A stretch of 64,000 nucleotides of DNA from Deltaproteobacteria bacterium (GCA_017644045.1 JAEPMI010000011.1:242763-306762), one strand, 5' to 3'; shown: positions 8,381-53,287, counted from the stretch's first letter. Translations and numbers: made by a program. Notes: generated by a model from the sequence alone, not told the origin.

Positions 8381-8435
8381 GAGGCGGAGGGTAGCTCAAC
8401 CGCCGCCGAGTGCGATCGGTCCGTCGGAACGATCG

Positions 8436-25976: not shown

Positions 25977-26003
25977 GCAGCGCACCGTCGCTCGGGGGCG
26001 GCA

Positions 26004-26131
26004 GTCGGCGTTCGGCGTCGGCGTCGGCGTCGGAGTTCGGCGTTCGGCGTCGGAGTTCGGCGTCGGTGTTCGGCGTCGGTGTTCGGCGTCGGAGTTCGGC
26101 GTCGGAGTTCGGCGTCCGTGTCGGACTTCGG
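26004..26131. repeat. GTCGG-core 6/7-nt array (reverse-complement orientation of the CCGAC family)
   Basis: gtcggcgttcggcgtcggcgtcggcgtcggagttcggcg... Starts 28 nt after the stop of the TPR/peptidase gene. Confidence 0.9.
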
Positions 26132-26365
26132 TTGTGTAGCCTCGCTTCGCATCGGCTTGCCTTCGGCAAGGGGTGAAGGGGCTGGGCTCGTCCTGCTGAT
26201 CTGAGGCTGCCCTCGCGGTCGGGGTAAGTAAACCCGGCTCGCTGCGCTCGCCCCGCCTTCGGCGGCTGACGGGGTTGACTGACCCCGCCCGCGAGGGCGG
26301 GGGGGCGGGTGCGCAGGACGGCGTGGCGGTCACGTCGTCGCTCGCGCGCCGAAAGGAACCCAATC

Positions 26366-26698
26366 ATGCTTCTCGTTCAGGAACTCTCGTTGGAGCTCGT
26401 GGCTCTCGTTCATCGCGATGTCATGCCGAAGGCTCGCGTTGGCGATCCGGACCTCGCGGACCAGCTCGGTCGTGCGGTGCGGTCGACGCCGCTCAACATC
26501 GCAGAAGGCGAAGGCTACGGGCGGTCGCGTCGGCGGGCGCATCACTTCAAGACGGCGCTCGGCTCCGGTCGGGAGGTCTTCATCGCACTTCGACTGTTGG
26601 TCTCGACCAACGTGGTGCCTGTGGCTCAGGCGGCCGAGAGCGTTGCGCTCAGTGACCGGGTCAACAAGATGCTCTTCGGGCTGATTCGGAAGGGCTGA
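26366..26698 (+). CDS. Four-helix-bundle protein (23S rRNA intervening-sequence protein / DGR Avd-like family)
   Basis: MLLVQELSLELV...DQLGRAVRSTPLNIAEGEGYGRSRRRAHHFKTALGSGREV... matches the family signature. AAGGA Shine-Dalgarno lies before ATG 26366. The ORF-track start 26309 is probably too early. Confidence 0.8.
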   Translation: MLLVQELSLELVALVHRDVMPKARVGDPDLADQLGRAVRSTPLNIAEGEGYGRSRRRAHHFKTALGSGREVFIALRLLVSTNVVPVAQAAESVALSDRVNKMLFGLIRKG

Positions 26699-26714
26699 GG
26701 GTCGGGAACGCGGC

Positions 26715-26747
26715 GAGACCCGCCGGGCAGGCTGCCCGGCGGGTCTC
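26715..26747. terminator. Bidirectional hairpin between the convergent four-helix-bundle genes
   Basis: 16+1+16 perfect palindrome GAGACCCGCCGGGCAG g CTGCCCGGCGGGTCTC. No clear U-tract. Confidence 0.55.
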
Positions 26748-26760
26748 CGTCACGTTCGCG

Positions 26761-27099
26761 CTACGCGACCTGGTGCCGCGTGAGCTTCCAGAGAATCGCG
26801 CAGACGTGATCGAGCCGGTCGAGCGCCTGCTTCACGCCCGCGTTTCGCTTCAGCGCCCGAGTCGCCAATCCGAGCTCGATGCAGGTCTTGCTCTCACGAG
26901 CGGACCCGAGCGCGATCTGGAAGTGATTCCGCTGCCGCTTGCCGCCGAGCAGCCCGAGCCCCTCGGAGACATTGAGCGCCACGGACCGAGCCGCACGATG
27001 CAGCTGCTGAGCGAGCTCGGCATCGTGAGCCGAGAGCATCGGCATGACGTCTTCATGGACCGCCGAAACAGCGTCGAGCGAGAGAGAATAGATCTTCAT
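26761..27099 (-). CDS. Four-helix-bundle protein (23S rRNA IVS / Avd-like family), paralog of 26366..26698
   Basis: MKIYSLSLDAV...QQLHRAARSVALNVSEGLGLLGGKRQRNHFQIALGSARES... GGAGG Shine-Dalgarno lies 6 nt before ATG 27099. The ORF-track start 27252 adds an implausible extension. Confidence 0.8.
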   Translation of the reverse strand: MKIYSLSLDAVSAVHEDVMPMLSAHDAELAQQLHRAARSVALNVSEGLGLLGGKRQRNHFQIALGSARESKTCIELGLATRALKRNAGVKQALDRLDHVCAILWKLTRHQVA

Positions 27100-27319
27100 T
27101 GGAAACCTCCGGTTGTTGCTGCCGTGGACGCCTCGTCCTGGCGCAGCCCCTCCGCCCTCGAGCGCAGGCGGAGTCAACCCCTTGCCGTCGCGAAGCGACG
27201 GTGCGGAGGCCAAAGGCCGGAGCAGGGTTGACGCCGCCGAGCACGAGGGCACGGTTGAACGACCAGGACGAGAGCCCCATCACCACTGGCTGAACGTGCC
27301 GGGGCGGCTGGGGCTCCCA

Positions 27320-27602
27320 GTCGGAGCTCGGAGTCGGCCGTCGGAGCTCGGAGCTCGGAGTCGGAGTTCGGAGTTCGGAGTCGGCCGTCGGAGTTCGGAG
27401 TTCGGAGTTCGGAGTTCGGAGTTCGGAGTCGGACTCGGAGTTCAGAGTCGGAGTTCGGAGTCGGCGTCGGCGTCGGCGTCGGAGTTCGGAGTTCGGAGTC
27501 GGACTCGGAGTTCAGAATCGGAGTTCGGAGTCGGAGTCGGAGTCGGAGTCGGCGTCAGAGTCGGAGTCGGCGTCCGCGTCGGAGTCGGCGTCCGCCGTCG
27601 GT
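27320..27602. repeat. GTCGG/TTCGG-core 6/7-nt array (units GGAGTC, GGAGTTC, GGAGCTC, GGCGTC)
   Basis: gtcggagctcggagtcggccgtcggagctcgg...ggagttcggagttcggagttcgg... Ends 34 nt before the stop of the FAD-oxidase gene. Confidence 0.95.
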
Positions 27603-27635
27603 GTTGGGAGTCGCGCGCCGGGGTCCCAACGCGGC

Positions 27636-28991
27636 TCACGGAAGCGCGAAGACGTCGTTCTCCAGCCAGGGGTTCAAGAAGTGCCGGTTCGGGTCCCACG
27701 CCTGCCGGACGGCTTTGAAGTCGTTCATCTTCGGGTACATCGTCGGCAGGTCGCCGTAGCGCGAGAAGTGCTTGCCCCAGTGCGGGCGCGCGCCGGGGAT
27801 GGCCGCCCAGCGGCTCTCGAGCTCGTCGAAGAAGGCCTGGAAGCCCGGGGTGCCGATCGCGGTGGTCGCCTCGATGTAGAGGCTGTGGCGGTCGTAGTTC
27901 GGTGCGATGTAGCCGTCGCCCGGACCGACGAAGCGACCGTGGAGCGCGTAGTTGATCGGGTACTTGCCGACGGCCGCGTACGCCGCGACCAGGTCGATCG
28001 CTTCCGACCACGCCTGCGACGCGTGGGTCGCAGGGATGCTGTAGGCGATGTCCCAGTTCTTCGAGTAGGCGTCCTGGAAGTGGAAGGCGTCCGAGGCGGG
28101 GATGATCTCCTTCTCGACCTCGGTGACGGTTCCACCCGCGAGCTTGGTGAGCACGGGCGTCAGCGATGGCGCGTTCTTCGCGATCCACGGCACCCAGACG
28201 TTCGCGGCGCGGCTCTGCACCTGGGTGTTCAGCCACTCCTCGGCCTTCCGCTGGAAGCTCCACTCGTCGGCGTGCGCCTCGGAGGGATCCATCAACAGGA
28301 AGTAGAAGGTGTCCGCGCCTGGCATCCAGAACATCTCGACGTATTCGTACGACGCGATGAGGTCGTCGAACTCGGCGAGCGTGCGGTCGACCGCGATGTT
28401 CCGCTTGTCGACGTAGACGTTGAACTCCTTCGAGACCTCGAGCTCGATCGAATAGATCATCCCGAGCGACCCGAGCGCGACCTTCGCCGCCGGCATCTCT
28501 GCATCGCCTTCGCTCACCGTTCGCACGGCGCCCGTCGCGTCCACGATCTGCAGCTCGGTGATGCTGTCGGAGAAGCAACCACCGCTCTTGCCGACGCCAT
28601 GCGAGCCGGTCGAGATGGCTCCAGCGATGCTCGGCCAGGGAAAGAGCGTCGGCGAGCGCAGGGTCAGGCCGTTGCCGTGCGTGATGGCGATGAGCTCGCT
28701 CATCTTCATGCCGGCTTCGACCTTCACGAAGTGGCGCTCGGTGGGTCCGCTACCGGTCGACCGAATCCCCAGGAGCCGGTTCAGCCCGCTCGTCTCGATG
28801 ATGCTGTTCCCGCTCGGCAGCGGGATGAGCGGCGTCCAGCTGTAGCCGGTGCCGGCGGGGCGGATCCGCCGGCTGCCGGTCGCAGCGTTCGTGACCGCGG
28901 TCTGCAGCTCCGTCAGGCTCGTCGGCGTGTAGACGTCGGCGATGCAGCTCTGGTTGCCGGTCCAGTTCTTCCATTCGCGTGTGGTGGGCAT
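27636..28991 (-). CDS. FAD-linked oxidase of the gulonolactone / arabinonolactone / alditol oxidase type
   Basis: N-terminal WKNWTGNQ, an FAD-binding PCMH-type region (PAGTGYSW...GAISTGSHG), and C-terminal ARPHWGKHF. GAGGA Shine-Dalgarno lies 5 nt upstream. Confidence 0.8.
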   Translation of the reverse strand: MPTTREWKNWTGNQSCIADVYTPTSLTELQTAVTNAATGSRRIRPAGTGYSWTPLIPLPSGNSIIETSGLNRLLGIRSTGSGPTERHFVKVEAGMKMSELIAITHGNGLTLRSPTLFPWPSIAGAISTGSHGVGKSGGCFSDSITELQIVDATGAVRTVSEGDAEMPAAKVALGSLGMIYSIELEVSKEFNVYVDKRNIAVDRTLAEFDDLIASYEYVEMFWMPGADTFYFLLMDPSEAHADEWSFQRKAEEWLNTQVQSRAANVWVPWIAKNAPSLTPVLTKLAGGTVTEVEKEIIPASDAFHFQDAYSKNWDIAYSIPATHASQAWSEAIDLVAAYAAVGKYPINYALHGRFVGPGDGYIAPNYDRHSLYIEATTAIGTPGFQAFFDELESRWAAIPGARPHWGKHFSRYGDLPTMYPKMNDFKAVRQAWDPNRHFLNPWLENDVFALP

Positions 28992-28998
28992 CGGGTCC

Positions 28999-30696
28999 TC
29001 AGATGTTGATGCTGTTGGGGACCCGAGAGGGCCGGTAGAAGGCGCAGTCGCGATAGCGGCTGGCGTCGCGCGCGACGATGGTCGCCTCGACGTTCTTCAG
29101 GGCGTCCTGGAAGTCGCGCACGATCGAACGAGTCCGCGGCAGCCAGCCGAGTCGATAGCGCCAGTAGGTCCCGATGCTGTCGAAGTGGAAGTCGCCGAAG
29201 GTGCTGTACGTGAAGCGGAGGTTGGCCGCGTCGAAGGGCGGGAGCATCGCGCGCCAGTGTGCTTCCGTGTCATCGGAGGGATCGGCGGGCGGTGGCGCGT
29301 AGGCCGACGCCGCGAAGGCCGGCGGATAGCGGTAGTACTCCATCTGCGAGAAGTGCTGCGACGCGTGCCCGGCGGTCGCGGTGTAGACCACCTGTGCCAG
29401 GATCCGGACCAGCGTCGCCTTGTTGTCGAGCGCTTCGCCCGGCTTGAAGAGACCGCGGAGGTTCCCTTCGGACGGGTCGGTCAGCTCCGCGACCCACCGC
29501 TGCATCTCCCAATCGGCGAGCACCTCGGAATCGTGCGCGTAGTACACGTCGACGTAGCGCTCGACGAAGGTGCGGATGGCGGCCGTGTAGAGCCGCATGT
29601 CGTCGCGGTAGGGGTAGACGGCGGGGCCGACGTCGACTCCGCGAGCGCTCACCTCCTCATCGAGCTCGAGCTTCCACAGCTCGTCCTCGTGGTGGGCGAT
29701 CTTCACGGTCTCCCGGAGCTCCTCGAGCGTGCCCGCGTAGAAGGTGAAGTAGGCATCCGTGCGGTCGACGAAGTTGTTGTACGCCGCCTCGTTCGTCCCG
29801 AGCGTGAAGCGCAGGTGGGGCTCGAGAAGGATGTAGACCGGGTGGTTCCGCGCGAGGTTCCGATAGGTCGCCATGCAGAAGGGGTCCATCGTCAGGTGCG
29901 TTCGGAGCACGTGACCCACGGCGACGTGGAAGTTCTCGTCGGCCACCTCCACGTAGAGCTTGCCGATGCGCCAGCCCATGCCGTCGGTCGGGTACCAGAC
30001 GCGGTTCGGCGGGTCGGCGTTCTTCTGGTCGACCTGGATGACCAGGGGGACCAGGTCACAGCCACGCGAGGGATCCGGGTCCTCCCAGAAGACCACGACC
30101 GGTGCAGGCAGGTACTTGTTGCGCCAGCGGGTGTCACGATTGGCCGGCGGCCGCAGCGAGCGCTGAAGGATCTCGTAGTCGAGGAAGTAGATCTTCCCCG
30201 CCGCGATCTCGGCGTCGAGCGTGGCGCCCCCGAGCTGCGCCTCGATGGCCGGCATCACCGTCGCCGGGTCGAAGAAGCGCCCCTCGAGATCGGCGCGGCT
30301 GGGGACCTTTCGCAGGCTGAGCGGGTTCGGTCCGGCGATGCGCCGCCATGCGAAGTCGACGTCCGAGTCGAAGTCGTCCACGTAGTCCGGCACGCGTCCG
30401 ATGAAGAGGTCCCGGTAGGCCTCGAGCTTGTCGTAGCGAAAGACCGCCTTCTGGAGGAGCGTCAGCCCCTTCTTCGCCGCGCGGTTTGCCTGCGCGAGTC
30501 CGTACAGAGGAAGGAACTTCGCGACCCAGGGCAGCCGGATCTTCTCGCTGACGAGCGGGAGCTCGCCGCTCGACATCACCGGGTCGAGCTGGTTCTCGTT
30601 CGGCGGCATCACGGCGTAGCGCTTGGCGCGACGAGCGATGAGCGTCTTTCGGAGCGCGGGAAAGCGGGCGTCGAAGGGCAGGGTGGGTTGGAACAT
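28999..30696 (-). CDS. Lipoxygenase (mini-LOX, 565 aa, no PLAT domain)
   Basis: Exact H-x4-H-x4-H-x17-H-x8-H signature (HVAVGHVLRTHLTMDPFCMATYRNLARNHPVYILLEPH). GHASQHFSQ. C-terminal ...VPNSINI (terminal Ile). ATG 30696-30694 overlaps the upstream TGA by 1 nt. The 891-aa ORF-track version is an artefact. Confidence 0.9.
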   Translation of the reverse strand: MFQPTLPFDARFPALRKTLIARRAKRYAVMPPNENQLDPVMSSGELPLVSEKIRLPWVAKFLPLYGLAQANRAAKKGLTLLQKAVFRYDKLEAYRDLFIGRVPDYVDDFDSDVDFAWRRIAGPNPLSLRKVPSRADLEGRFFDPATVMPAIEAQLGGATLDAEIAAGKIYFLDYEILQRSLRPPANRDTRWRNKYLPAPVVVFWEDPDPSRGCDLVPLVIQVDQKNADPPNRVWYPTDGMGWRIGKLYVEVADENFHVAVGHVLRTHLTMDPFCMATYRNLARNHPVYILLEPHLRFTLGTNEAAYNNFVDRTDAYFTFYAGTLEELRETVKIAHHEDELWKLELDEEVSARGVDVGPAVYPYRDDMRLYTAAIRTFVERYVDVYYAHDSEVLADWEMQRWVAELTDPSEGNLRGLFKPGEALDNKATLVRILAQVVYTATAGHASQHFSQMEYYRYPPAFAASAYAPPPADPSDDTEAHWRAMLPPFDAANLRFTYSTFGDFHFDSIGTYWRYRLGWLPRTRSIVRDFQDALKNVEATIVARDASRYRDCAFYRPSRVPNSINI

Positions 30697-33600
30697 CAGC
30701 GGGCCTGGACGTTGCGAAGTGAGAGACCGGGAGCCATGGCCCGCGTCCAGCGGGCCGGATCGGCGACGTCGAGCGCGACGAGGAGCTCGTCGATCTCGCG
30801 AACCTTGTCGGTGTCGCCGAGGATCTCGGCGGCACGGCGTCGGGAGGTGGCGGCGCGCACGGGCAGCGCAGCGCGCTCGAAGTGCCGCGACGAGAGCGCG
30901 AGACGATCGATCGCGCCCTCGTGGTCCCCGTCCTGGAGGACGATCGCGGCTTCCAGTGTCGCTCGGCGGCCGAGCGCGTAGTCGGTCTGGGCACCGCCCA
31001 GCCAGCGGCGGAGCATTCGCTTCGCGCGGCCTCGCATGCGGCGTCCACGCAGCCCCCGGGCGCCTTCGCTCACCGCGAGGAGCGCGCCGATGCGAAGCGC
31101 GCCGTAGAATTCGCGACCCACGCGCACCATGAAGAGGCCGGCTTTGCGCAGGCCGGGCCAGGCGTCCTCGATGCGCTCGTGGGCGCGCTCCGAGCGGCCG
31201 AGGTAGAGCTCCGTCAACGTGTCGATCGTGAGCGACGCGAAGCGCACGTACATCGCGAGGCCGGGCACCTTCTCCCGAGCCGACGCGGTCGAGCGGCGAG
31301 CCACGGCCGGGTGGCCCAGCGCCAGCGACGCATAGGCGCCGTCGACCATGGCGGCGGCCTCGGTGTACGGGTTCCCGACCTCCCGCGCGTCCGCGACGAT
31401 CCGCTTCGTTCGCTCGTCGAGCTCGCGGAAGCGGTCCAGGTAACGGAGCTGAGTGGGGATCTGCATCAACGCCGCATGGCGGACACCGACGGTGTCCTTC
31501 ACCCGCACGAGCTGCTGATGAGCCGCCTCGAGCTCTTCGAGTGCACGAAGCCAGTCGTCCTCCATGAACGCCTGCAGCCCGCGCGCGTAGGCGGCGGTGC
31601 CGAGCGCCTCGGGCGTGTCGACGCGCTTCGCGAGCTCGGTCGCGCGCGCGAGCAGGATTTCGGCGCGCTTCCATCCGAAGTTCGTGAAGAAGCTGCCGAG
31701 TACCGCCGTGCCGACGGCGACCGAGTGGGTGTCACCGGCGCGGAGGGCCAGCTCGTACCCCTGGATGTAGTAGTGCAACGCACGCACGAGGTCGGAGAGG
31801 GTCAGCGACGGAGCCAGCGTGAAGCACGCGCGAATGCGGAGCGCCTCTTCGGTGGGGATCGACTCCTGCGGTCGCTCGTGAAGCTCCTGGTCGCGGGCCA
31901 CCAGACGGATCAGACGCGCTGCGGTCTGTAGGTTCATGCGCAGGCGCGAGCTCGCCGGAGGGAGACCGAGTTGCCTGCCGAGTGGCTCGAGCAGCCCGTC
32001 GCCTTCGCGGGTCGCGCCGCTGGTGTAGTAGGCCTGTGCGGCCGACAGCTCGAGCTTCGACCGCTCGAGCGGGTCGGCGAATTCCCGGGCGAGCGACTCG
32101 TGGAGCCGGGCGCCCTCGCGGCACCGCCCGGCGCGCACCAGCGCCTCCCCGAGCTTGCGCCGCAGCACCCGTCGCTCGCTCATCTGGGGCGGCGTCGCCA
32201 TCTTGTCGGTCCACTCGAGCGCGCGCTCGTAGAGCTGCACCGCCTCTTCGAACGCGAGGGCGCGCGCAGCGTCGTCCCCGGCGCGCTGTGCGTGCAGCGC
32301 TGCGAGAGCCGCTTCGCCCGCCTCGACGAAGTGCGGGAGGAGCGCGCGCGACGGCGCACCCTCCTCGGCCAGCGAGTGACCGATCGCGCGGTGGAGCTCG
32401 CGCCGCGCCGGCGCGCTCAGTCCTTCGAGCAGCGTGGAGCGGATGCGGCTGTGGTAGGGCGCCACTCGTTCGACGTCGCCGCTCTGCTGGGTCCGGAGCA
32501 GGCGCGCCGCCACCAGCCGATGGACGGTCGTGCGGTCGGCGGGGGTCTCGCTCGCGGCGCGGTGAGCGGCGGTGACGGTGATCGGCACGCCCGCCACGGC
32601 GACGACCTCGAGCAAGCGTTGCGATCCGGGCGGGAGCTTGCGCAGGCGGTCGGCGAGCACCTGCGAGAGCAGGAAGCGACGGTCGTCGCTGTCGGGGGTC
32701 TCGCCGGAACGGTCGCCGTCCAGATCCCAGGTGCCCGAGTTCCGTGCGTGGCGCGCGAGCTCCTCGACGAAGAGCGGGTGGCCCGCGGCTTCTTTCGCGA
32801 TGCGCTTGGCAATGGTCGGGTTGTTGGTCGCCAGGATTCGGCCAGCGAGGTCGGCGCTCGCGTCCGCACGGAGCGGCGTGAGCGCGATGCGAGAGACCGG
32901 CAGCGACGGGTCGCTCTCGATCCGTTCGAGCAGGGCACGAGGGAAGGGGCTCGACCGCTCTTCGCTGCGCATCGCGAGCAGCCAGAGCACGGGCGGTGCG
33001 GCCGCGCCGCGGAGCTGGTCGAGGAGGATCTCCGCGCTCTGAGGGTCGCCCCATTGTACGTCGTCGACGAACGCGACGATCGGCCGGTCGCGGCCCAGCC
33101 GGAAGAGCAGCTCGCGGAGCGCGCGGAAGCCGCGCCGACGCGCCGCGACGGGATCGCCGAGCAGCTCCGCGCTCGAGACCTCGGCAGACTGGAGCACGGC
33201 CGCGAAGACCGGGAAGAGTCGGGCGAGCTCGGCGGCGTGCGGAGGCAGGAGCGCGCGCAGCTGGGGACCGGCGATGCGACCGAGGTGGTCGCTGAGCTCG
33301 TCCACCAACGCGTCCATCGCCTTGTAGGGAACGAAGTCCTGCTCGTAGCAGCGGCCCGGGAGGAGGAGCGCGTCGCGCTGTCCGGCGACGGCGTCGAGGA
33401 AGGTCTCGACCAGCGCGGACTTGCCCATGCCGGACTCGCCCTCGAGGAGCACGAGCCGGGGCTCGGCGTGGCGGGTGGTCTCGTCGAACGCCTGATGCAG
33501 CGCCTGCAGCTCCTCATCGCGTCCGACCACGGAGAACGCCTGGTGCTTCGGCGTCTTCATCCGCGGCGCGCGGCCGCCGAGCCCACGCGCGACGTGTGCC

Positions 33601-34607
33601 GCGTCCGGGCGCTGCTTCGGCTGGACCTCGAGGAGCGCGTCGCAGAGCTCGGCGAGCCGCTCCGGGACCCGTGGGTTGAGGTCGCGGACCTTCGGCGCGC
33701 CCCCGCGCACCTTGCGCCAGAGCAAGGTCATCAGGTTGGGGTGTTCGTAGGGCAGCCGGCCCGTGAGCACCTCGTAGAGGATCACGCCGAGCGCGTAGAG
33801 GTCGCTCGGCGGCCCGACTTCGCGGCCCGTCGCCTGCTCGGGGGCCATGTAGTTCGGGGTGCCGATGACCATGCCGGTGCGTTCGCCGGCGCCGCGCGGG
33901 TCGAGCTCCGTCACCAGCCCGAAGTCGAGCACCACCGGGCGACCGGCGCTGCTGACGAGTACGTTGTGCGGCTTCAGATCGCGGTGAAGCATGCCCGCGC
34001 CGTGCAACGTCGCGAGCGCGTCGGCGACGTCACCGAAGACGCGCGCGATGTTGGTCCAGTCCAGGTCGACCGGGTTCGGTTCGGGAGGTCCTTCGAGCTC
34101 GAGCTCGCCGAGCGTCTGCGCGAGCGCCTTGTCCTCCTCGGTGGCGTCGAGCGGCGTCGGCCTCGGATCGAAGTGGGTGGCGTCGCTCTCGGAGCTGATC
34201 GAGTGCTCGGCCAGCCGCTGGTCGGTCGGCAGGATCTCGTCGACCATCATGGTCTGCATGAGGCTCGCGCCCGGCCGGAGCGTCGGTAGCGGGCCGCTCG
34301 GACGCAGATGGTCGGTGATCGGGGTGCCCTCGACGAGCTCCATCGCGAGGTACCAGGAGCCGTCCTCCACGAAGAGCTCGTAGAGCGCGACGAGGTTCGG
34401 GTGGCTCAGTCGGGCGAGCGACCGGAACTCGCGCTTGAACCGATAGAGTCCGCGAGCGTCCGCGCGGTGGAGCCGCTTGAGCGCGACCTCCGTTCCACGC
34501 TCCGTGTCCACGGCGGAGAAGACCTCGCCATAGCTGCCGGAGCCGAGCACTCCTTCGATTCGAAAGCGTCGCCCGACGATCGCTTTCGAAGAGGGGGCCC
34601 CCGCCAT
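30696..34607 (-). CDS. Ser/Thr kinase fused to an AAA/STAND NTPase and TPR-like repeats (1303 aa)
   Basis: Kinase motifs GSGSYGEV, ALK, HRDLKPHNVL, DFGLV and APE. P-loop LLEGESGMGKSAL. Long helical-repeat C-terminus. Confidence 0.9.
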   Translation of the reverse strand: MAGAPSSKAIVGRRFRIEGVLGSGSYGEVFSAVDTERGTEVALKRLHRADARGLYRFKREFRSLARLSHPNLVALYELFVEDGSWYLAMELVEGTPITDHLRPSGPLPTLRPGASLMQTMMVDEILPTDQRLAEHSISSESDATHFDPRPTPLDATEEDKALAQTLGELELEGPPEPNPVDLDWTNIARVFGDVADALATLHGAGMLHRDLKPHNVLVSSAGRPVVLDFGLVTELDPRGAGERTGMVIGTPNYMAPEQATGREVGPPSDLYALGVILYEVLTGRLPYEHPNLMTLLWRKVRGGAPKVRDLNPRVPERLAELCDALLEVQPKQRPDAAHVARGLGGRAPRMKTPKHQAFSVVGRDEELQALHQAFDETTRHAEPRLVLLEGESGMGKSALVETFLDAVAGQRDALLLPGRCYEQDFVPYKAMDALVDELSDHLGRIAGPQLRALLPPHAAELARLFPVFAAVLQSAEVSSAELLGDPVAARRRGFRALRELLFRLGRDRPIVAFVDDVQWGDPQSAEILLDQLRGAAAPPVLWLLAMRSEERSSPFPRALLERIESDPSLPVSRIALTPLRADASADLAGRILATNNPTIAKRIAKEAAGHPLFVEELARHARNSGTWDLDGDRSGETPDSDDRRFLLSQVLADRLRKLPPGSQRLLEVVAVAGVPITVTAAHRAASETPADRTTVHRLVAARLLRTQQSGDVERVAPYHSRIRSTLLEGLSAPARRELHRAIGHSLAEEGAPSRALLPHFVEAGEAALAALHAQRAGDDAARALAFEEAVQLYERALEWTDKMATPPQMSERRVLRRKLGEALVRAGRCREGARLHESLAREFADPLERSKLELSAAQAYYTSGATREGDGLLEPLGRQLGLPPASSRLRMNLQTAARLIRLVARDQELHERPQESIPTEEALRIRACFTLAPSLTLSDLVRALHYYIQGYELALRAGDTHSVAVGTAVLGSFFTNFGWKRAEILLARATELAKRVDTPEALGTAAYARGLQAFMEDDWLRALEELEAAHQQLVRVKDTVGVRHAALMQIPTQLRYLDRFRELDERTKRIVADAREVGNPYTEAAAMVDGAYASLALGHPAVARRSTASAREKVPGLAMYVRFASLTIDTLTELYLGRSERAHERIEDAWPGLRKAGLFMVRVGREFYGALRIGALLAVSEGARGLRGRRMRGRAKRMLRRWLGGAQTDYALGRRATLEAAIVLQDGDHEGAIDRLALSSRHFERAALPVRAATSRRRAAEILGDTDKVREIDELLVALDVADPARWTRAMAPGLSLRNVQAR

Positions 34608-34717
34608 GAGCGGGACTCTAGCGTCTCGGAGTCGAGCTTGGAACGACTGGATTTACGGGGCGTCCCTGCCTTTGGAGGTCCGGAGACTCCGGCTCCGAGA
34701 GCCGACGACCGACCCTG

Positions 34718-36184
34718 ATGTCGAGTACCCTTCGCCGGATGAGTGTGGCTGAGGGGCTGATGACCCGACTGCAGCAGTGGGTTCCTCCCACCGAGCGGCG
34801 GTCGCGAGAGGCGATCCTCCGCGCGGGGATGCCGCCGCCCTGGCCAGAGTCGCCGATGCGGCAAGTGCGTCGGTGGGCCTCCGACATGGATGGGCTCCTC
34901 GGCGAGGCCGCGGCCACTGGCAGCGCGTGGACCTTCGACTTCTGGCGCCAGGGGCGCATGGCGGTCTTCACCTCGGAGTCCGCTCGCCGCCAGGTGCTGG
35001 CGGCGGGTCCCGAAGAGCTCGGCCACGCGAACGATCTCGCCGGGCTCTTCGTCGGCCCGCATTCGCTCCTGCTGCGCAACGGCGAGGACCACGCACGTGC
35101 GCGGCGTCGAACCCTCAAGCTGATCGGAGCGGAGCGCCTCTCGGTCTACGGGCAGGCGATGCTCGACGTGACCCGCGAGTGGCTCGCGACGCTCTCCCCC
35201 GGCGACGAGATCGAGGTGCTCGACGCCTGCCAGAACATGACCCTCGACATCATCCTGCGGACGGTGCTCGGCGTCCCGCCAGGGCCCGACTACGACGCTC
35301 TCCACGCCGCGGCGCGTGCGTTCATGATGAGCGGCCGCTCGGTCGCGGGGAACCTCGCGGCGCTCCTGTTGCCCACGGACGCGCTCCGTGGCGCCGTGCT
35401 GGGTCCGGAGGACCCGACCGGCGGCTCGGCGACCCTGGGGGCTCTGGGGCGGTCGCTACCCGGTGCCGTGGAGGGCCGCACGCTCGTCTCGCTCCTTCGC
35501 GCCTCGATCGCGCGCCGCCGTGCGAAGCCGGACGGTGACGATGTGCTCGCCAGGCTCGTCCAGGAAGGCGAGCTCGGAGACGCGGCCATCCTCGACGAGA
35601 TCGCCACCCTCCTGCTCGCGGGCCACGACACCACGGCCGTCACCCTCGGGTGGATGCTCTACCGCATCGGCCGGCGACCGACCCTCTGGACCGAGCTCCG
35701 CACGGAGCTCGAGGCCCACACCGAGGGCGAGCCGCTGGACCCGACGAAGCTGCCTCGCCGAGGCCTGCTCGGCGCGTGCGTGATGGAGAGCCTGCGCCTC
35801 GACGGACTCACGCTGGGAGTGCTCCGCCGCGCACGGCGCTCCGTGATGATCGACGGCTACCGGATCCCCGCGGGGACCTTGGTCAACGCCCTGGTCCGCC
35901 CGCGACACATCGACCCCGAGCGATGGGACGATCCGGAGCGCTTCGCGCCCGAGCGCATGCTCTCCGCGAAGCCCGCGCCCCACGAGTTCGCGCCCTTCGG
36001 TGGAGGCTATCGGCGCTGCGTCGGAGCGTCCTTCGCGACCTATGAGATGCAGATCGTGCTCGCAGGGATCGCGGAGGCGATCGAGCTCCACACGCCGCCG
36101 GACGTGGTGGTCGATCGGGTTCAGTACGGGCCCTTTCCCGGTCCGAGCAACCGCATCCCGATGCGGGTCGTCGCCCGCCCCTGA
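34718..36184 (+). CDS. Cytochrome P450
   Basis: I-helix AGHDTT, ExxR (ESLRL), PERF-like DPERFAPER, and heme loop FAPFGGGYRRCVGASFA. Confidence 0.9.
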   Translation: MSSTLRRMSVAEGLMTRLQQWVPPTERRSREAILRAGMPPPWPESPMRQVRRWASDMDGLLGEAAATGSAWTFDFWRQGRMAVFTSESARRQVLAAGPEELGHANDLAGLFVGPHSLLLRNGEDHARARRRTLKLIGAERLSVYGQAMLDVTREWLATLSPGDEIEVLDACQNMTLDIILRTVLGVPPGPDYDALHAAARAFMMSGRSVAGNLAALLLPTDALRGAVLGPEDPTGGSATLGALGRSLPGAVEGRTLVSLLRASIARRRAKPDGDDVLARLVQEGELGDAAILDEIATLLLAGHDTTAVTLGWMLYRIGRRPTLWTELRTELEAHTEGEPLDPTKLPRRGLLGACVMESLRLDGLTLGVLRRARRSVMIDGYRIPAGTLVNALVRPRHIDPERWDDPERFAPERMLSAKPAPHEFAPFGGGYRRCVGASFATYEMQIVLAGIAEAIELHTPPDVVVDRVQYGPFPGPSNRIPMRVVARP

Positions 36185-36255: not shown

Positions 36256-36831
36256 TCAGTCGGGTCCGCCGATGGACCCGGTCTTGTTGGTGACGAAGCG
36301 CAGGTTGCTGAACTCGGTCTGGCCGAGCGTGTAGATCACCTCGGACAGGGTCCGGAACGGCGTCCGGGAGTCCGCGACGATCTGCACCTCTCCCTTGAAG
36401 GGGCGGGAGGGCGTTCGCTGCTCGATGAGCTTCTGCAGGTCTCGGATGCGCCCCATCTCGCGGAAGAGCGGGGTGATCAGGAACCCGGTGCCGCCGCCCT
36501 GCTTCTGGCTGGGGTCGACCAGCCCGTTGCGGAGCTCGAGGATGGTGTTTCCGTCCACGACGATCGCGTTGCGCGAGATCTGGATCGGGGTGGCTTCCCC
36601 CATCTCGATCTCGGTGGTGGAGTAGGGGATCCGAAGCTCTTCCGACTGCGTGATCGCGGCCGCCGAGGAGGACGCGAACTGCATGACCATGAAGACGAGG
36701 AGAATCGTCATCATGTCCATCATCGGGTAGATGTTGAGACCGTGCCCTTCGGGCTCGGGGTGCTTGGCGATGCGGCGGCGGATCTCCCGCTTCACCGCTC
36801 CCATCGACGCTTGTTCTTCTTCTTCGGCCAT
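36256..36831 (-). CDS. ExbD/TolR-family protein (triad A, distal)
   Basis: Single TM helix with the conserved Asp (NIYPMMDMMTILLVFMV) and a periplasmic ExbD-like domain. GAGGTAA Shine-Dalgarno. Confidence 0.8.
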   Translation of the reverse strand: MAEEEEQASMGAVKREIRRRIAKHPEPEGHGLNIYPMMDMMTILLVFMVMQFASSSAAAITQSEELRIPYSTTEIEMGEATPIQISRNAIVVDGNTILELRNGLVDPSQKQGGGTGFLITPLFREMGRIRDLQKLIEQRTPSRPFKGEVQIVADSRTPFRTLSEVIYTLGQTEFSNLRFVTNKTGSIGGPD

Positions 36832-36835
36832 GGTG

Positions 36836-37390
36836 TTACCTCACGCCCGCTGAGATGAGCACGTCGGGGAAAAGTTCCTCGCCTTCTTTGTCGCGCACCG
36901 CATCCATCGCCGAGACCAGGTCCTGGAACTCGACCAGGTTGTCGGCGGAGACGGTCACGCGAGTCTCGTCGGGGAACTCCTGCTTCACCGTCGACACGCA
37001 GTTGCGCAGCCCCTCCCAGTCGTAGTCGTTGCCGCGCTTGGGCACGGTGAGGACGTCGCCGGTCGAGGTGGTGGCGCAACCGGGCGCGAGCTTTCCGCCC
37101 GAGCCGGTCACGGTGATGCCGTTCTGCGTCACGAACACGCTCAGGTTGAGCTGAGGCTCGTCCGAGGCTCGCCGCCCCACGCCGCCGCTCGAGTACGTCG
37201 GTAGCGACGCTTCGAGCTGCGAGTAGAAGGCGATCGAGCTCGTGATCATGAGCAGGAACATGATCAAGTTCACGACGATGTCGAGGAACGGGATGATGTT
37301 CAGCTCGTCATCGGTCTCATCCGGCCCGGGCTCCTCGTACTTGGAGCGCTTCCGGATGTAGGCGCGCTGTTGTGCACTGAATTGCGGCAT
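36836..37390 (-). CDS. ExbD/TolR-family protein (triad A, middle)
   Basis: LNIIPFLDIVVNLIMFLL TM helix with Asp, plus an ExbD-like C-terminal domain. Confidence 0.8.
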   Translation of the reverse strand: MPQFSAQQRAYIRKRSKYEEPGPDETDDELNIIPFLDIVVNLIMFLLMITSSIAFYSQLEASLPTYSSGGVGRRASDEPQLNLSVFVTQNGITVTGSGGKLAPGCATTSTGDVLTVPKRGNDYDWEGLRNCVSTVKQEFPDETRVTVSADNLVEFQDLVSAMDAVRDKEGEELFPDVLISAGVR

Positions 37391-37403
37391 GGGGCGAGCC
37401 CCG

Positions 37404-38033
37404 TCAGCCCTTCGGGCGGAGCGTCAGCAGGTTCTCGAGCTTGGTCGCCGCCTTCTCCATCTCCGTCTTCTGCTTCTTGGCCATACCGTGCAGCACGAGG
37501 TGCGCGGTCATGCAGATGACGGCGATGAGGAGGCCGAGGAAGGTGTTCCACATGGCCTCGGCGATACCGGCCGAGAGGATCTTGGACTTCTCGCCCGGGT
37601 CGTCGATGGCACCGACGGCCTTGAAGGCCGTGATGAGGCCCTTGATGGTCCCGAGGAGACCGATGAGCGTCGCGATGTTCGCGAGCGTCCAGAGAGAGCC
37701 GATGCGCTTCTCCAGCCGCGGCAGCTCCTCGCCCATCCGCTCGTCCATCGCAGCGATGATCGCCTCCTCACCTCGGTTGACCTGGGTGAGACCAGCCTTG
37801 CAGACCTGCAGGAGCGGCAGCGGGGCTGCTTCGCAGAGCTTGATCGCGCGATCGATGTTGCCCGCCTGCACGAGCTTTCGGATCTGCCCCATGAACTCGG
37901 TCGTGTTGACCCGGTACTTGGTCAGGATGAACACGAAGCGCTCCGCGATGATCGCGAGCGCGAGGGCCAGCACTCCGATGTTGATGAACGAGAACGGAGC
38001 TCCCTCCATCAACGCATGCCAGACTTCTTCCAT
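37404..38033 (-). CDS. MotA/TolQ/ExbB-family proton channel (triad A)
   Basis: MEEVWHAL... contains three TM helices and the family C-terminal core LSAGIAEAMWNTFLGLLIAV. AGGAG Shine-Dalgarno lies before ATG 38033. The ORF-track start 38441 is too early. Confidence 0.85.
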   Translation of the reverse strand: MEEVWHALMEGAPFSFINIGVLALALAIIAERFVFILTKYRVNTTEFMGQIRKLVQAGNIDRAIKLCEAAPLPLLQVCKAGLTQVNRGEEAIIAAMDERMGEELPRLEKRIGSLWTLANIATLIGLLGTIKGLITAFKAVGAIDDPGEKSKILSAGIAEAMWNTFLGLLIAVICMTAHLVLHGMAKKQKTEMEKAATKLENLLTLRPKG

Positions 38034-38385
38034 CAGTAGGCTCCTATGGATGGCTCGGCTCGTCGTGGCCGAGTCGCCGTCCCCCCCGAGGGGCCCAATC
38101 GCGCCTGCGATTTGCCTTGGTCGGGCGGAATCCCTTGAAATCGTTGAACTTTCGCGGTTTTTAGGCCGCTTTCTCAGGGGCGACGCTACCGCAGCGCCGC
38201 TCGGGTTGTCAACGGAATCGGATGGGCATCCTGAACCCCCCATGAAGAGCACCTCTGGACGAGAGAAAAGGAGGGGCTCCCCAAATGAAGAGAGATGGCC
38301 GGGAACTTTTGCTCGCGAGTGGCCTCTCAGCCTCCACGTCAGCGAGGTCCCCGCACGGACATTCAGCCAGCCCGTCGGATCCCCG

Positions 38386-38413
38386 TTGACTTGTGGGCAC
38401 CACTCTGTATCAT
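38386..38413 (+). promoter_or_regulatory. Candidate sigma-70-type promoter for triad B
   Basis: TTGACT (38386-38391), 16-nt spacer, TATCAT (38408-38413), about 145 nt upstream of ATG 38559. Pattern match only. Confidence 0.3.
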
Positions 38414-38558
38414 CGCCCTCGCTCGAGCCCAGCCGTCCCAAATTGGTTGGTTTTTCGGGCTCGTTTCAAGATTTCGCAAGGTTCTGACGAGGACCGAGGC
38501 GGCACCGCATGGAGCGGGCCGCAGCTCCGGTCCGAGGTTTTCCAGGAGGCAGTCTGAC

Positions 38559-39212
38559 ATGTCGGCAATCGCACACCATTTCGACGAAGGCGGATGGGCG
38601 ATGTACGTCATCCTTTTCTGGCTTGTGATGGCGATTGGTTTCTCCATCGAGCGTGCCGTCTATCTCTATAAGGCGAGCATCAACAAGGATGTGTTCCTCG
38701 CGACGATGCAGAAGTGCATCTTGGCCGGTGACATCGGCCGCGCGATCAAGCTCTGCAGCGCCGCCAACGCGCCGCTCGCTCGTATCGTGAAGGCTGGCCT
38801 CATGAAGGTGAACCGGCCGGACGCGGAGGTTCAGGCCGCGATGGACGAGGCCGCGCTTCGCGAGCTCCCCAAGATCGAGGCTCGTACCCCGTTCCTCGGT
38901 CTCTTCGCCAACCTCGCCATGCTCTCGGGCCTCTTCGGCACCGTTCTCGGTCTCATCGGCGCGTTCGCTGCCGTTGCCGGCGCGGACCAGGCCTCGAAGG
39001 CCACCATGCTCGCCAAGGGTATCTCCGAGGCCATGAACTGCACGGCCTTCGGTCTCCTCTCGGCCATCGTCGCTCTCATGAGCATGGCGGTGCTGAACGG
39101 TAAGACCCAGGGTCTGCTCGACGACATCAACGCCGCGACCGTCCAGGTGATGAACCTTGTGGTGAACAACCGCTCCAAGGTGAACCTGCAGGGTCTCGAG
39201 CAGGGCGCCTGA
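38559..39212 (+). CDS. MotA/TolQ/ExbB-family proton channel (triad B)
   Basis: MSAIAHHFDEGGWAMYVILFWL... Paralogous to triad A (AGDIGRAIKLCSAANAPLARIVKAGL versus AGNIDRAIKLCEAAPLPLLQVCKAGL). AGGAGG Shine-Dalgarno. Confidence 0.85.
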   Translation: MSAIAHHFDEGGWAMYVILFWLVMAIGFSIERAVYLYKASINKDVFLATMQKCILAGDIGRAIKLCSAANAPLARIVKAGLMKVNRPDAEVQAAMDEAALRELPKIEARTPFLGLFANLAMLSGLFGTVLGLIGAFAAVAGADQASKATMLAKGISEAMNCTAFGLLSAIVALMSMAVLNGKTQGLLDDINAATVQVMNLVVNNRSKVNLQGLEQGA

Positions 39213-39249
39213 GGCGCTCGAACACAGGACACCTAGGAGGAACTGAGCC

Positions 39250-39726
39250 ATGGGCGGTATCGACACCGGTGGTGGACACGGCGGAAAGAAGAGCGTGGAC
39301 CAGGAGATTCCCCTGATCCCGTTCATCGACCTCCTGTTCTGCTGCATCATGTTCCTGCTCGCCACGGCCGTGTGGAACCAGCTGGCCCGCATCGCGGCCA
39401 ACCAGCAGACCCCCGGCCAGGCGCCCAGCGACGATCAGCCCCCGCCCGAAGAACGGGTGAAGCTCATCCTCCAGGTGCAGAACTCCGGCTACAAGCTGGC
39501 GTCCACCGCGGGCGACGACTTGCCGATCCCCAAGAACGGCGACGAGTACGACGTGGAAGAGCTTCGTAACAAGCTGCAGGAGCGCAAGCGCCTCGAGCCC
39601 AACCGGCAGGACATCATCGTCGCGCCGGAGGACGGGGTTCGCTACGAGGACGTGGTCACGGCCATGGATCTCGTGGTGGGCGAAGGCTTCCCGCAGATGA
39701 CCCTCAGTGACGGCGCCACGCTGTAA
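39250..39726 (+). CDS. ExbD/TolR-family protein (triad B, middle)
   Basis: IPLIPFIDLLFCCIMFLL TM helix with Asp. IPKNGDEYDVEELRNKL parallels VPKRGNDYDWEGLRNCV of triad A. AGGAGG Shine-Dalgarno. Confidence 0.8.
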   Translation: MGGIDTGGGHGGKKSVDQEIPLIPFIDLLFCCIMFLLATAVWNQLARIAANQQTPGQAPSDDQPPPEERVKLILQVQNSGYKLASTAGDDLPIPKNGDEYDVEELRNKLQERKRLEPNRQDIIVAPEDGVRYEDVVTAMDLVVGEGFPQMTLSDGATL

Positions 39727-39738
39727 GGATCGATACTC

Positions 39739-42543: not shown

Positions 42544-42558
42544 GCCCGGCCGCGGCCC

Positions 42559-53250: not shown

Positions 53251-53287
53251 CAATCGATGATCGCCCGCCGACGAGCAGATGTCGACG

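Follow-up and report, generated by a model that had tools for sequence, protein, structure and literature searches.

Gene organization of the locus

The window analyzed here, a stretch of DNA of 64,000 nucleotides, contains three closely spaced genes on the minus strand and a fourth that diverges from them (Table 1). In order of transcription, the three encode a Ser/Thr kinase joined to a STAND-type ATPase (kinase-STAND), a lipoxygenase (LOX) and a flavoenzyme (FADox), and the divergent gene encodes a cytochrome P450. One base is common to the stop codon of kinase-STAND and the start codon of LOX (minus strand ...cgcTGATGttc...), and only 7 nt (TGAggacccgATG) lie between the LOX stop and the FADox start, with a GAGGA Shine-Dalgarno-like sequence present. 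The starts of the kinase (34607) and P450 (34718) genes are divergent, and promoters are presumed to lie in the region between them. An earlier note on this DNA had described the same reading frames, overlap, gap and divergent P450, and its coordinates match ours exactly. The translational coupling that it proposed is real, as seen in the TGATG overlap and the 7-nt spacer, and its four family assignments (kinase/NTPase, LOX, FAD oxidase and P450) all hold in a Pfam search. Housekeeping genes (Lon, ExbBD, IMPDH) make up the flanks, and no pfa or desaturase genes were found in the 64-kb window.

Table 1. Features of the locus, with positions counted from the first letter of the window.
Feature	Position	Strand	Basis
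Kinase-STAND gene	30696-34607	minus	ORF; 1303 aa
Kinase domain, aa 17-341	33585-34559	minus	Pfam and motifs
AAA_16 P-loop NTPase domain, aa 360-542	32982-33530	minus	Pfam
C-terminal helical region (putative sensor/interaction), aa 801-1303	30699-32207	minus	AF2 model
TGATG stop/start overlap, kinase-STAND/LOX	30694-30698	minus	read in sequence
Lipoxygenase (LOX) gene	28999-30696	minus	ORF; 565 aa
LOX-FADox spacer, 7 nt	28992-28998	minus	read in sequence
FADox (flavoenzyme) gene	27636-28991	minus	ORF; 451 aa
Intergenic region, 110 bp, between kinase-STAND operon and P450 gene (divergent)	34608-34717	no strand	read in sequence
Cytochrome P450 gene	34718-36184	plus	PF00067; 488 aa

A PLAT-less lipoxygenase

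The LOX matches PF00305 (E 2e-39, 136 bits against a cut-off of 23.6), and no PLAT domain was matched in it at E<0.01 in the Pfam search. The signature H257-x4-H262-x4-H267-x17-H285-x8-H294, the motif H444-ASQ-H448 and the C-terminal NSINI are seen directly in the protein, which, along with PF00305, bears out the earlier description of an exact His signature, a terminal NSINI and no PLAT domain. The iron ligands (H262, H267, H444, H448 and I565) are intact, and none of the five varies across the clade alignment A2, the numbering of which is offset by -1. No signal peptide or transmembrane segment was found in the protein. Overall, the window LOX is, by prediction, a cytoplasmic, PLAT-less 'mini' iron lipoxygenase.

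The best solved relative is LOX2 from Cyanothece sp. PCC 8801 (CspLOX2; 5MED/5MEE/5MEF), matched through 5MED/5MEF at E 3e-66, with the alignment to 5MEF covering residues 86-565 and reaching the C-terminal Ile. Both proteins are PLAT-less and ~565-569 aa in length; each is extended at the N-terminus by helices, carries the His-rich motif and uses its C-terminal Ile as an iron ligand. The two are nonetheless only ~32% identical, the window LOX has His448 (HASQH) where the fourth ligand of CspLOX2 is Asn, and the first ~85 residues of the window LOX, which align only within its clade, are unlike those of CspLOX2. The position which we take to be the Coffa site, based on our own alignment to soybean LOX-1 numbering, is Ala (A304/305), as in CspLOX2. 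Pseudomonas aeruginosa LoxA (4G32) is a more distant relative. Neither CspLOX2 nor LoxA is known to be paired with a flavoenzyme. Among the solved-structure matches of the window LOX, 3DY5/2FNQ, from the group of LOXs with a dedicated partner enzyme discussed below, also turned up.

A distinct VAO-type flavoenzyme

FADox matches the FAD_binding_4 and ALO models (E 1e-15 and 2e-35, respectively; Pfam) and contains the motifs WKNWTGN and HWGK, and its NCBIfam matches all fall far below curated cut-offs. The closest folds to its AlphaFold model (pLDDT 90) are those of L-galactono-1,4-lactone dehydrogenase (GalDH; 8QMY), AldO (2VFR), a VAO-type cholesterol oxidase (1I19) and DprE1, with a Foldseek probability of 1.00 against both GalDH and AldO. 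FADox shares the two-domain VAO fold with these solved enzymes (TM 0.72-0.80 normalized to the query, 0.64-0.83 to the target) at 16-23% identity in the structural (Foldseek) alignments, and the combination of FAD_binding_4 and ALO, as well as an HWxK motif, is common to FADox and AldO-type enzymes. The protein also contains a 44-residue two-helix insertion (aa 246-289).

With respect to the active site, the hydroxyl undergoing oxidation in AldO is bound by Arg322 and Lys375, while Ser106, Glu320 and His343 serve in polyol binding and give the channel its shape. The equivalents of the Arg/Lys pair in FADox, R353 and K407, are invariant in 28/28 sequences. At the positions of AldO S106, E320 and H343, FADox has L116 (within PTLFP), H351 and E374, and throughout the clade (20/20 members) these positions are Leu or Met, His, and Glu or Asp, so that the residues for polyol recognition have given way to a hydrophobic or otherwise different set. 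Oxidase members of the ALO/GULO/AldO type feature 8-alpha-N1-histidyl covalent FAD (AldO His46); Y50 takes the place of this His in FADox, and the position is Tyr in 18/20 clade members as opposed to His in 7/7 generic AldO-like sequences. A sharp gap in the homolog list further separates the clade (at least 282 bits) from generic alditol oxidases (at most 151 bits). Because the polyol-binding residues and the covalent His are replaced, we file FADox as a separate subfamily and not as an alditol/gulonolactone oxidase. The gulonolactone/alditol oxidases proposed earlier are only distant cousins of FADox. As judged from these comparisons, FADox is a VAO-superfamily flavoenzyme belonging to a distinct LOX/STAND-associated subfamily, which would be new to the VAO family and carries the active-site signature PTLFP / His351 / Glu374 / no covalent His.

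The kinase-STAND protein

The 1303-aa protein encoded upstream of LOX contains a Pkinase domain (E 9e-47, 160 bits) and an AAA_16 domain (E 6e-25, 89 bits against a cut-off of 32.6) in the Pfam search. All Hanks-type motifs are present (GSGSYGEV, VALK, HRDLKPHN, DFG and APE), with an ~85-aa insert between subdomains V and VI, and both Walker A (GESGMGKS, aa 390) and Walker B (VAFVDD, aa 511) are intact. The C-terminal ~500 aa are all-helical in a single-sequence AlphaFold model of low confidence (pLDDT 52), and no Pfam TPR model matched this region at E<0.01; of the helical TPR repeats proposed earlier, the helical part is plausible and the TPR part is putative. A TIGR03903-like match covers aa 354-837, with a score of 227 against an NCBIfam cut-off of 706. 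The family is very large (5117 representatives at E<1e-30), and the LOX-linked STANDs have no sharp boundary within this huge set of paralogs. Orthologs are found upstream of LOX at the surveyed loci L001, L002, L005, L006, L008 and L013, with C-terminal regions that are 31-34% identical in L005, L006 and L008.

Conservation of the gene neighbourhood

The loci informative for comparison were 22 members of the clade of the window LOX, all from Myxococcota-type genomes and spanning 31-95% LOX identity. FADox directly follows LOX in every one of them (22/22), and in all loci other than the window the junction is either a spacer of 6-12 nt or a 4-nt overlap. No flavoenzyme was present beside those LOXs surveyed outside the clade. 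The NJ trees of LOX and FADox show the same groupings, and the two have co-evolved as a tightly coupled pair.

In 14 of ~17 lineages the pair adjoins a gene for a STAND ATPase, in an order that varies. Its output domain is either a Ser/Thr kinase, as in the window, or a class-III nucleotide cyclase, the latter replacing the former in about half of the lineages. The kinase type is found upstream, overlapping LOX, in the window and its six ortholog-bearing loci listed above (a TGATG-class overlap also in L006 and L008), and convergently downstream elsewhere. The cyclase type is upstream in L012 and convergent downstream in L004, L010, L020 and L027. In two or three loci (L024, L003 and L039), which contain the LOX-FADox pair or FADox alone, no STAND gene is seen in the visible flanks. 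The C-termini of the kinase-type and cyclase-type STANDs have no detectable homology (hhalign probability 6%), and a common ligand-binding domain is therefore not supported.

Given that Myxococcota encode very many kinase/cyclase-STANDs (the 5117 representatives above), one could ask whether the adjacency is fortuitous in a kinase- and STAND-rich genome. The survey effectively refutes this idea, to which we assign a negligible probability: the trio is met again among proteins of 35-45% identity, with its genes arranged in at least five ways, the start/stop overlaps are conserved, and LOX and FADox adjoin without exception. Because it recurs in distant relatives, the arrangement is, on comparative grounds, far beyond chance. 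The earlier note had named, as a refutation of its proposal, that LOX homologs elsewhere never co-occur with the FAD oxidase, the signalling ATPase-kinase and the P450. The survey favors the proposal for two of these partners: the FAD oxidase accompanies LOX in all informative loci and the STAND protein in most lineages, with the qualification that the kinase is not a constant feature.

The P450 itself is well defined (PF00067, E 2e-42; motifs AGHDT, ESLR and FGGGYRRCVG), and its nearest solved relatives are monooxygenases, the lipid/sterol-type CYP11A1, CYP90B1, CYP46A1, CYP120 and CYP102. A CYP74-type role in handling hydroperoxides was ruled out, as the oxygen-activating I-helix motif AGHDT is retained and no CYP74 is found among the 60 matches listed (of 225 at E<=1e-10). 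A P450 occurs beside the module in only two lineages: it is adjacent in the lineage of the window (L001, L002 and L013), and L005 and L006 carry a P450 of ~30% identity elsewhere in the locus. The proposal of a core pathway partner is accordingly not supported, and the P450 is a lineage-specific accessory gene.

Other tailoring-type neighbours of the pair are EBP (L008), WS_DGAT (L005 and L006, alongside their P450) and SDR with Metallophos (L012). Such variable genes around a fixed two-enzyme core, together with the FAS/aryl-polyene-like cluster that adjoins a variant locus (L037), could indicate a specialized-metabolite cluster, regulated by its own STAND, in which a secreted lipid is assembled by LOX and FADox with the help of tailoring enzymes (P450, SDR, EBP/ERG2-like isomerase, WS_DGAT). 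We consider this quite improbable, since the conserved companions of the core include no transporter, thioesterase, PKS or NRPS, the tailoring genes change from lineage to lineage so that only the LOX-FADox-STAND trio recurs, and the window genes sit among housekeeping functions.

Several observations favor a lipid over a sugar as the substrate of FADox. In L037, a cyclase-STAND gene overlaps an ERG2_Sigma1R-FADox fusion by 4 nt, and in L008 an EBP gene overlaps the FADox stop; both ERG2/sigma-1 and EBP are membrane domains of the sterol-isomerase type. WS_DGAT, P450 and a fatty-acid desaturase are also among the FADox neighbours. The AldO polyol residues are replaced throughout the clade while the Arg/Lys pair is invariant, and two enzymes that oxidize lipid alcohols, cholesterol oxidase and DprE1, are among the structural neighbours. 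The substrate need not be a LOX product, as L037 and L040 have FADox without LOX, still accompanied by cyclase-STANDs; in L040, FADox lies among four cyclase-STAND paralogs, one of which overlaps its stop codon. This link without LOX means that the core may be wider than an 'oxylipin pathway'. It is conceivable, though rather unlikely in our estimation, that the core is the flavoenzyme-STAND pair and not LOX, making or detecting an oxidized membrane lipid for kinase or cNMP signalling, with interchangeable LOX, ERG2-like or EBP-like front ends as suppliers of the lipid. Such a core could take the form of an operon that encodes both an oxylipin autoinducer made by the cell itself and the receptor for it, or of an NLR-like sensor/effector set that triggers ferroptosis-like death through lipid peroxidation.

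Proposed function

The reading that we favor, tentatively and at somewhat under an even chance, is that of a conserved, vertically inherited module for lipid oxidation and signalling in Myxococcota-type bacteria, in which LOX and FADox would act sequentially on a lipid and STAND would couple them to signalling. Specifically, LOX would dioxygenate an endogenous polyunsaturated fatty acid, the production of which is documented in several myxobacteria (PMC6163206). Once the hydroperoxide had been reduced or rearranged, FADox would oxidize a CH-OH group of the lipid to a carbonyl; a hydroxy-diene would, for instance, yield a keto-diene, and a vicinal diol/triol would yield a ketol. STAND, being co-translated, would then read either the oxidized lipid or the enzymes themselves through its helical C-terminal region, and this reading would drive nucleotide-dependent assembly that turns on the kinase or cyclase output. 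The module would in effect be an oxylipin-type signal generator encoded beside its own transducer, with the divergent P450 as a lineage-specific tailoring or hydroxylating accessory.

Information may flow either from the enzymes to STAND or, as in the 'signal-gated' lipid oxidation of the earlier note, from STAND to the enzymes. In the second case STAND would be an upstream regulator that responds to a different cue (stress, development, prey or exogenous fatty acid) and, through phosphorylation or cNMP, switches on the activity or expression of LOX/FADox so as to remodel or oxidize lipids. Regulators are typically found beside their targets in any orientation, as is the case here, and the differing sensor regions of the two STAND types would fit varied inputs to one output. 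TIGR03903-type STANDs are annotated as cluster-associated proteins of biosynthetic loci, and Mycobacterium tuberculosis PknK (kinase plus AAA_16) controls the adjacent lipid-modifying mymA operon. However, LOX and FADox both lack a cNMP-binding domain (Pfam), so that a cyclase output could not target either enzyme directly. Moreover, the STAND/enzyme stop-start overlaps give a co-production that a purely transcriptional regulator does not need, and no DNA-binding partner is conserved in the surveyed loci. We regard this direction as rather unlikely.

STANDs that act as immune sensors in bacteria typically have swapped N-terminal outputs and repeats at the C-terminus that diverge quickly, which raises the possibility of a conflict system in which an NLR-like STAND senses molecules of phage or competitors and LOX and FADox serve as suicide effectors, bringing about ferroptosis-like abortive infection by peroxidation of membrane lipids or by H2O2. 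The patchy distribution of the module and the four STAND paralogs around one FADox in L040 fit this idea, as do PADLOC matches of the kinase domain to the defence-kinase models mad6 and PD-T4-6. These matches, however, concern the generic kinase domain only, and LOX, FADox and P450 have none. In relatives at 62-95% identity (L001, L002 and L013), the module is flanked by housekeeping genes in synteny, which is not the picture given by a mobile defence island. Moreover, the neighbours that recur belong to lipid metabolism, and the main survey of NTP-dependent conflict systems makes no mention of LOX. An immune role is consequently very improbable in our view.

Returning to the lipid-oxidation/signalling module, if STAND senses a LOX product, this would be a prokaryotic LOX-based oxylipin circuit with a logic like that of eicosanoids and jasmonate. 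If the enzymes are instead effectors, regulated lipid peroxidation in bacteria would be indicated. The LOX-FADox pair may also serve the production of keto- or polyoxygenated fatty acids.

Comparison with known systems

Lipoxygenases have been put at <0.5% of bacterial species in one account (PMC6612559), and current reviews treat the bacterial enzymes only as biocatalysts (PMC13319228). Full-text searches, including a 2026 review of bacterial LOXs, found no description of a LOX-FAD oxidase-STAND context, in line with the earlier claim that this is not a described LOX context. For the role of bacterial LOXs, the module would provide a defined second step and a signalling read-out.

Coupling of LOX, by fusion or adjacency, to a dedicated second enzyme is found in plants, corals and cyanobacteria. 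The plant LOX/CYP74 pairs and the coral and cyanobacterial catalase-related AOS-LOX fusions follow the same logic as the genes described here, in that LOX is coupled to an enzyme that takes its product. The second enzyme is a VAO-superfamily flavoenzyme here, whereas it is a haem protein in those systems. As for the local P450, it is not conserved as a partner, and its AGHDT motif preserves the acid-alcohol pair of O2-activating monooxygenases.

The kinase-STAND protein has the same architecture as M. tuberculosis PknK, the Rv0386-type cyclases and TIGR03903 ('TOMM system kinase/cyclase fusion protein'), in which an STK or class-III cyclase serves as the output domain and is joined to an AAA_16 NTPase and to a long C-terminus made of helices. 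These proteins are likewise encoded beside enzyme operons. Unlike that group, the window protein lacks an HTH domain, and a link to LOX/FADox has not been described for STANDs of this type.

Finally, membership in Pseudomonas-type oxylipin quorum sensing was rejected, as the locus has no domains of a di-haem diol synthase or its cognate transcription factor (Pfam), and the analogy is a functional one only. In P. aeruginosa, oxylipin enzymes are encoded with, and feed, a signalling circuit (diol-synthase operon; PMC6377657). The enzymes of that system are unrelated, being di-haem dioxygenases that attack oleate beyond the cytoplasm, and its regulator is a transcription factor, whereas the module described here combines an iron LOX of the cytoplasm with a flavoenzyme and with a kinase or cyclase of the STAND type.

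Organization and Catalytic Motifs of the Locus

The open reading frames of the locus, three on the minus strand and one on the plus strand, lie exactly where the earlier note had placed them. Specifically, the stop codon of the 1303-aa STAND gene and the start codon of the 565-aa lipoxygenase (LOX) gene have one base in common within a TGATG overlap, a gap of 7 nt separates the LOX gene from that of a 451-aa flavoenzyme (FADox), which has a GAGGA shortly before its ATG, and the start of the divergent P450 gene is 110 bp from that of the STAND gene; the three junctions are as originally described. Pfam upheld the four family assignments, including a LOX without a PLAT domain. The TPRs that had also been named are matched by no TPR model in the 1303-aa protein, residues 801–1303 of which are all-helical in a single-sequence AlphaFold (AF2) model of low confidence (pLDDT 52).

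Features of the locus and of the surrounding window
Feature	Positions	Strand	Content
STAND protein, 1303 aa	30696-34607	-	Pkinase + AAA_16
STAND/LOX overlap	30694-30698	-	TGATG
LOX	28999-30696	-	Lipoxygenase
FADox	27636-28991	-	FAD_binding_4 + ALO
P450	34718-36184	+	p450
Interval 3' of FADox, 1.66 kb	25977-27635		
Satellite	26005-26116		(TCGGCGTCGGAGT)x8.6
Inverted repeat pair	26271-26306 / 27146-27181		
Four-helix-bundle ORF	26309-26698	+	23S_rRNA_IVP
Four-helix-bundle ORF	26761-27252	-	23S_rRNA_IVP
Satellite	27319-27592		(AGTCGG)x43
Steroid dehydrogenase fusion	6983-8395	-	3-beta-hydroxysteroid dehydrogenase/isomerase-family domain + TMEM254
ExbB/ExbD cluster	36256-40278		
ExbD-like	36256-36831	-	
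ExbD-like	36836-37390	-	
MotA/ExbB	38295-39212	+	
ExbD-like	39250-39726	+	
ExbD-like	39739-40278	+	
Second P450, full length	42544-43917	+	
CDP-alcohol phosphatidyltransferase	43965-45083	-	
Radical-SAM enzyme	45161-46330	+	
SUKH-1 protein	51829-53358	-	SUKH-1 (SMI1/KNR4) + leucine-rich repeats

In terms of catalytic residues, the LOX motif is intact (H257-x4-H262-x4-H267-x17-H285-x8-H294, H444/H448 and the C-terminal Ile565), as are the kinase motifs of the STAND protein (Gly loop, VALK, HRDLKPHN, DFG and APE) and the Walker A and Walker B motifs of its NTPase; the P450 contains AGHDT, ESLR and FGGGYRRCVG. Because a signal peptide or hydrophobic segment was found in none of the four proteins, their chemistry is placed in the cytoplasm. 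The region has a G+C content of ~70%, and elsewhere the window carries ordinary chromosomal genes (Lon, ExbB/ExbD arrays, IMPDH, sigma-54 activators, transporters and RecQ). The closest relatives are marine Sandaracinus-like Myxococcota MAGs, and the same genes are found at 91–95% protein identity in locus L001 (CAYXAP010000002, 'uncultured Sandaracinus sp.') and at 62–77% in UBA1660 'Myxococcales bacterium'.

Several other features of the window were recorded. The interval 3' of FADox contains two convergent 23S_rRNA_IVP ORFs whose upstream regions are mutual inverted repeats, and this block has G+C-rich satellites on both sides of it within the interval; the equivalent interval in the 95%-identical L001 is only ~330 bp with one partial four-helix-bundle match, as if the interval here had recently been inserted or expanded. 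A steroid dehydrogenase fusion, encoded ~20 kb away from the module, gives this myxobacterial genome an enzyme of sterol type. The second P450, beside a CDP-alcohol phosphatidyltransferase and a radical-SAM enzyme, may belong to a separate lipid-modifying locus. The ExbB/ExbD cluster holds four ExbD-like genes and one MotA/ExbB gene, with further paralogous copies of the family nearby in the related loci L001 and L002. The SUKH-1 protein, encoded beside an ECF sigma factor, has an immunity-protein-type architecture.

Conservation of the LOX–FADox Pair

Relatives were gathered by LOX homolog search and by scanning contigs from genomes and metagenomes for sequence patterns; the scan derived from a 15-sequence LOX alignment gave 4 genome loci and 24 metagenome loci. 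Contigs encoding distant LOX homologs, and those encoding FADox homologs, were added by exact look-up. Loci were scored by tblastn against a protein panel, after which all flanking ORFs were clustered.

A FADox ortholog was the next gene downstream of LOX in every distinct locus that carries a LOX of this clade and has downstream sequence (22/22), at a spacing of 6–12 nt or with a 4-nt overlap. The LOXs concerned have identities of 31–95% in alignments that are close to full length, and in neighbor-joining trees LOX and FADox fall into the same groups. The pairing is obligate, with co-evolution of the two genes, and chance adjacency is excluded. LOXs outside the clade have no FADox and keep different neighbors: in Archangium (L011, 8431-12239), a P450 that diverges from LOX and a 4HBT thioesterase encoded downstream, and in P0059 a 995-aa patatin phospholipase directly 5' of a Planctomycetota-like LOX, for which the patatin could release substrate. 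Six further non-clade loci (L028–L033) have neither P450/thioesterase nor patatin. 'Rosetta stone' fusions of LOX and FADox were absent among 120 FADox homologs.

With respect to the flavoenzyme, members of its clade also occur without LOX. In L037 (10001-11995) and L038, an ERG2/sigma-1-receptor-like domain is fused to a FADox-type flavoenzyme in a 664-aa protein whose gene is overlapped by 4 nt by a cyclase-STAND gene; lipase, PhyH and SDR genes and a FAS/aryl-polyene-like cluster lie nearby. In L040 (1016-17528), one LOX-less FADox-clade gene and a Metallophos gene lie within a group of four DZR-cyclase-AAA_16 STAND paralogs (~1110 aa each), one of which overlaps the FADox stop codon. This NLR-array-like layout is the strongest hint that the flavoenzyme–STAND pair, and not LOX, is the module core. 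A Metallophos (calcineurin-like phosphoesterase) gene lies 3' of the cyclase-type modules of L012 (10285-11538) and L040 (12488-13786); the enzyme could be the circuit's cNMP phosphodiesterase. Finally, in L008 (13146-13580) the FADox stop is overlapped by a gene for a membrane protein of EBP/EXPERA (sterol-isomerase) type; the flavoenzyme is thus linked to two sterol-isomerase families, EBP and ERG2, which are unrelated to each other.

The FADox Subfamily

The scores of FADox homologs step down from ≥282 bits for clade members (≥41% identity) to 222 bits for the ERG2 fusion and ≤151 bits for generic alditol/xylitol oxidases, and every clade member with an inspectable contig lies in one of the LOX-linked or LOX-less/STAND contexts described here. 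On sequence grounds, FADox forms a separate subfamily. Its AlphaFold model (pLDDT 90) most closely resembles L-galactonolactone dehydrogenase, alditol oxidase, VAO-type cholesterol oxidase and DprE1, all of which convert CH-OH to carbonyl, two of them on lipid alcohols.

The alditol-oxidase active site, in which Arg322 and Lys375 hold the reacting hydroxyl while the remaining hydroxyls are bound, and the channel shaped, by Ser106, Glu320 and His343 (PMC8788829), was mapped onto the FADox alignment. The Arg322/Lys375 equivalents (R353 and K407 in the window FADox) are invariant, and Ser106, Glu320 and His343 are replaced by Leu/Met (in a PTLFP motif), His and Glu/Asp, respectively, in 20/20 clade members; in 18 of the 20, Tyr occupies the position of the covalent-FAD His46. 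Together with the fusion to, or overlap with, the membrane sterol-isomerase families ERG2 and EBP, these changes argue for a hydrophobic alcohol as the probable substrate and for non-covalent FAD. Although the VAO/ALO fold is the same, FADox departs from the alditol/lactone oxidases in two of their defining features.

The STAND Partner

A STAND protein adjoins the pair in 14 of the ~17 lineages with at least one gene visible per side. In five lineages, a kinase-AAA_16 ortholog of the window protein lies upstream and overlaps the LOX start, with identities of 37–44% in the kinase, 39–44% in the NTPase and 31–34% in the C-terminus; in one, the kinase-AAA_16 gene is convergent and downstream. The partner in six lineages is a double-zinc-ribbon/class-III cyclase/AAA_16 protein, encoded upstream in L012 and convergently downstream in L004, L010, L020, L027 and one further locus. 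No STAND was seen within the visible flanks of L024 and L003. The linkage is recurrent through rearrangement, output-domain swap and LOX loss.

An exhaustive HMMER search with the STAND NTPase and C-terminal region returned 5117 cluster representatives at E<1e-30, with >150 full-length matches of ~1250–1300 aa at 30–38% identity. This continuum of >5000 representatives led us to reject a small dedicated family; given its very large size, the LOX-linked proteins are one orthologous line in a generic signal-transducer class. Also rejected as evidence was a sensor domain or ligand common to both STAND types, as hhalign found no detectable homology between their C-terminal regions (probability 6%). 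A word-indexed protein search with the C-terminus (30699-32207) returned nothing despite 61–92%-identical relatives in L001 and L002, an uninformative result presumably due to Ala/Arg/Leu-rich words saturating the index.

An immune or suicide system is very unlikely: PADLOC matched generic kinases only, and we rejected its defense-system classification because the matches are confined to the kinase domain.

The P450 and Other Accessory Genes

The earlier note had counted the P450 as a partner of the module, which the wider sampling did not bear out. A P450 adjoins only in the window lineage and in L005/L006, where it is ~30% identical to that of the window and differently positioned. CYP74-like chemistry was also rejected, since AGHDT is retained and no CYP74 was among the solved-structure matches listed. 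Other lineage-specific neighbors are WS_DGAT, an acyl-ACP-desaturase-like gene, the EBP/EXPERA gene and SDRs. The module has intact catalytic sites and lipid-type accessory genes around it; that it forms part of a tailoring-rich metabolite cluster seems unlikely. Based on the recurring neighborhoods, we consider LOX–FADox plus a STAND signaling ATPase to be the unit under selection, with the P450 only accessory.

Proposed Mechanism and Comparison with Known Systems

Beyond gene linkage and active-site conservation, the functional scheme is one that we infer. LOX would oxygenate endogenous PUFA, FADox would convert a hydroxyl group on the LOX-derived lipid into a carbonyl by oxidation, and the STAND protein would link these reactions to Ser/Thr phosphorylation or cNMP synthesis. 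Several myxobacteria are documented to synthesize PUFA (PMC6163206), and no PUFA-synthase or desaturase genes as a substrate source were found within the 64-kb window. We tentatively favor sensing of the product or an enzyme by the STAND protein, because the start/stop overlaps co-produce STAND and enzymes and because neither LOX nor FADox can be a direct target of cyclase output. The latter point also weighs against the reverse direction, in which STAND gates LOX and FADox and which we regard as rather unlikely.

The module makes the long-open question of bacterial LOX function directly testable. Its gene context is mentioned neither in full-text searches nor in a bioinformatic survey of LOXs in bacteria from 2024 or a review from 2026, in agreement with the original remark that it is not a described one for LOX. 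Among the individual components, LOX belongs with the bacterial PLAT-less enzymes, of which Cyanothece LOX2 is the type example, and the STAND architecture is that of PknK-type, Rv0386-type and TIGR03903-type proteins. Whereas the known LOX partners CYP74 and catalase-related AOS are haem enzymes, the partner here is a flavoenzyme. The only described bacterial oxylipin signaling system, that of P. aeruginosa, likewise differs, as its enzymes are unrelated to LOX and FADox (PMC6377657).
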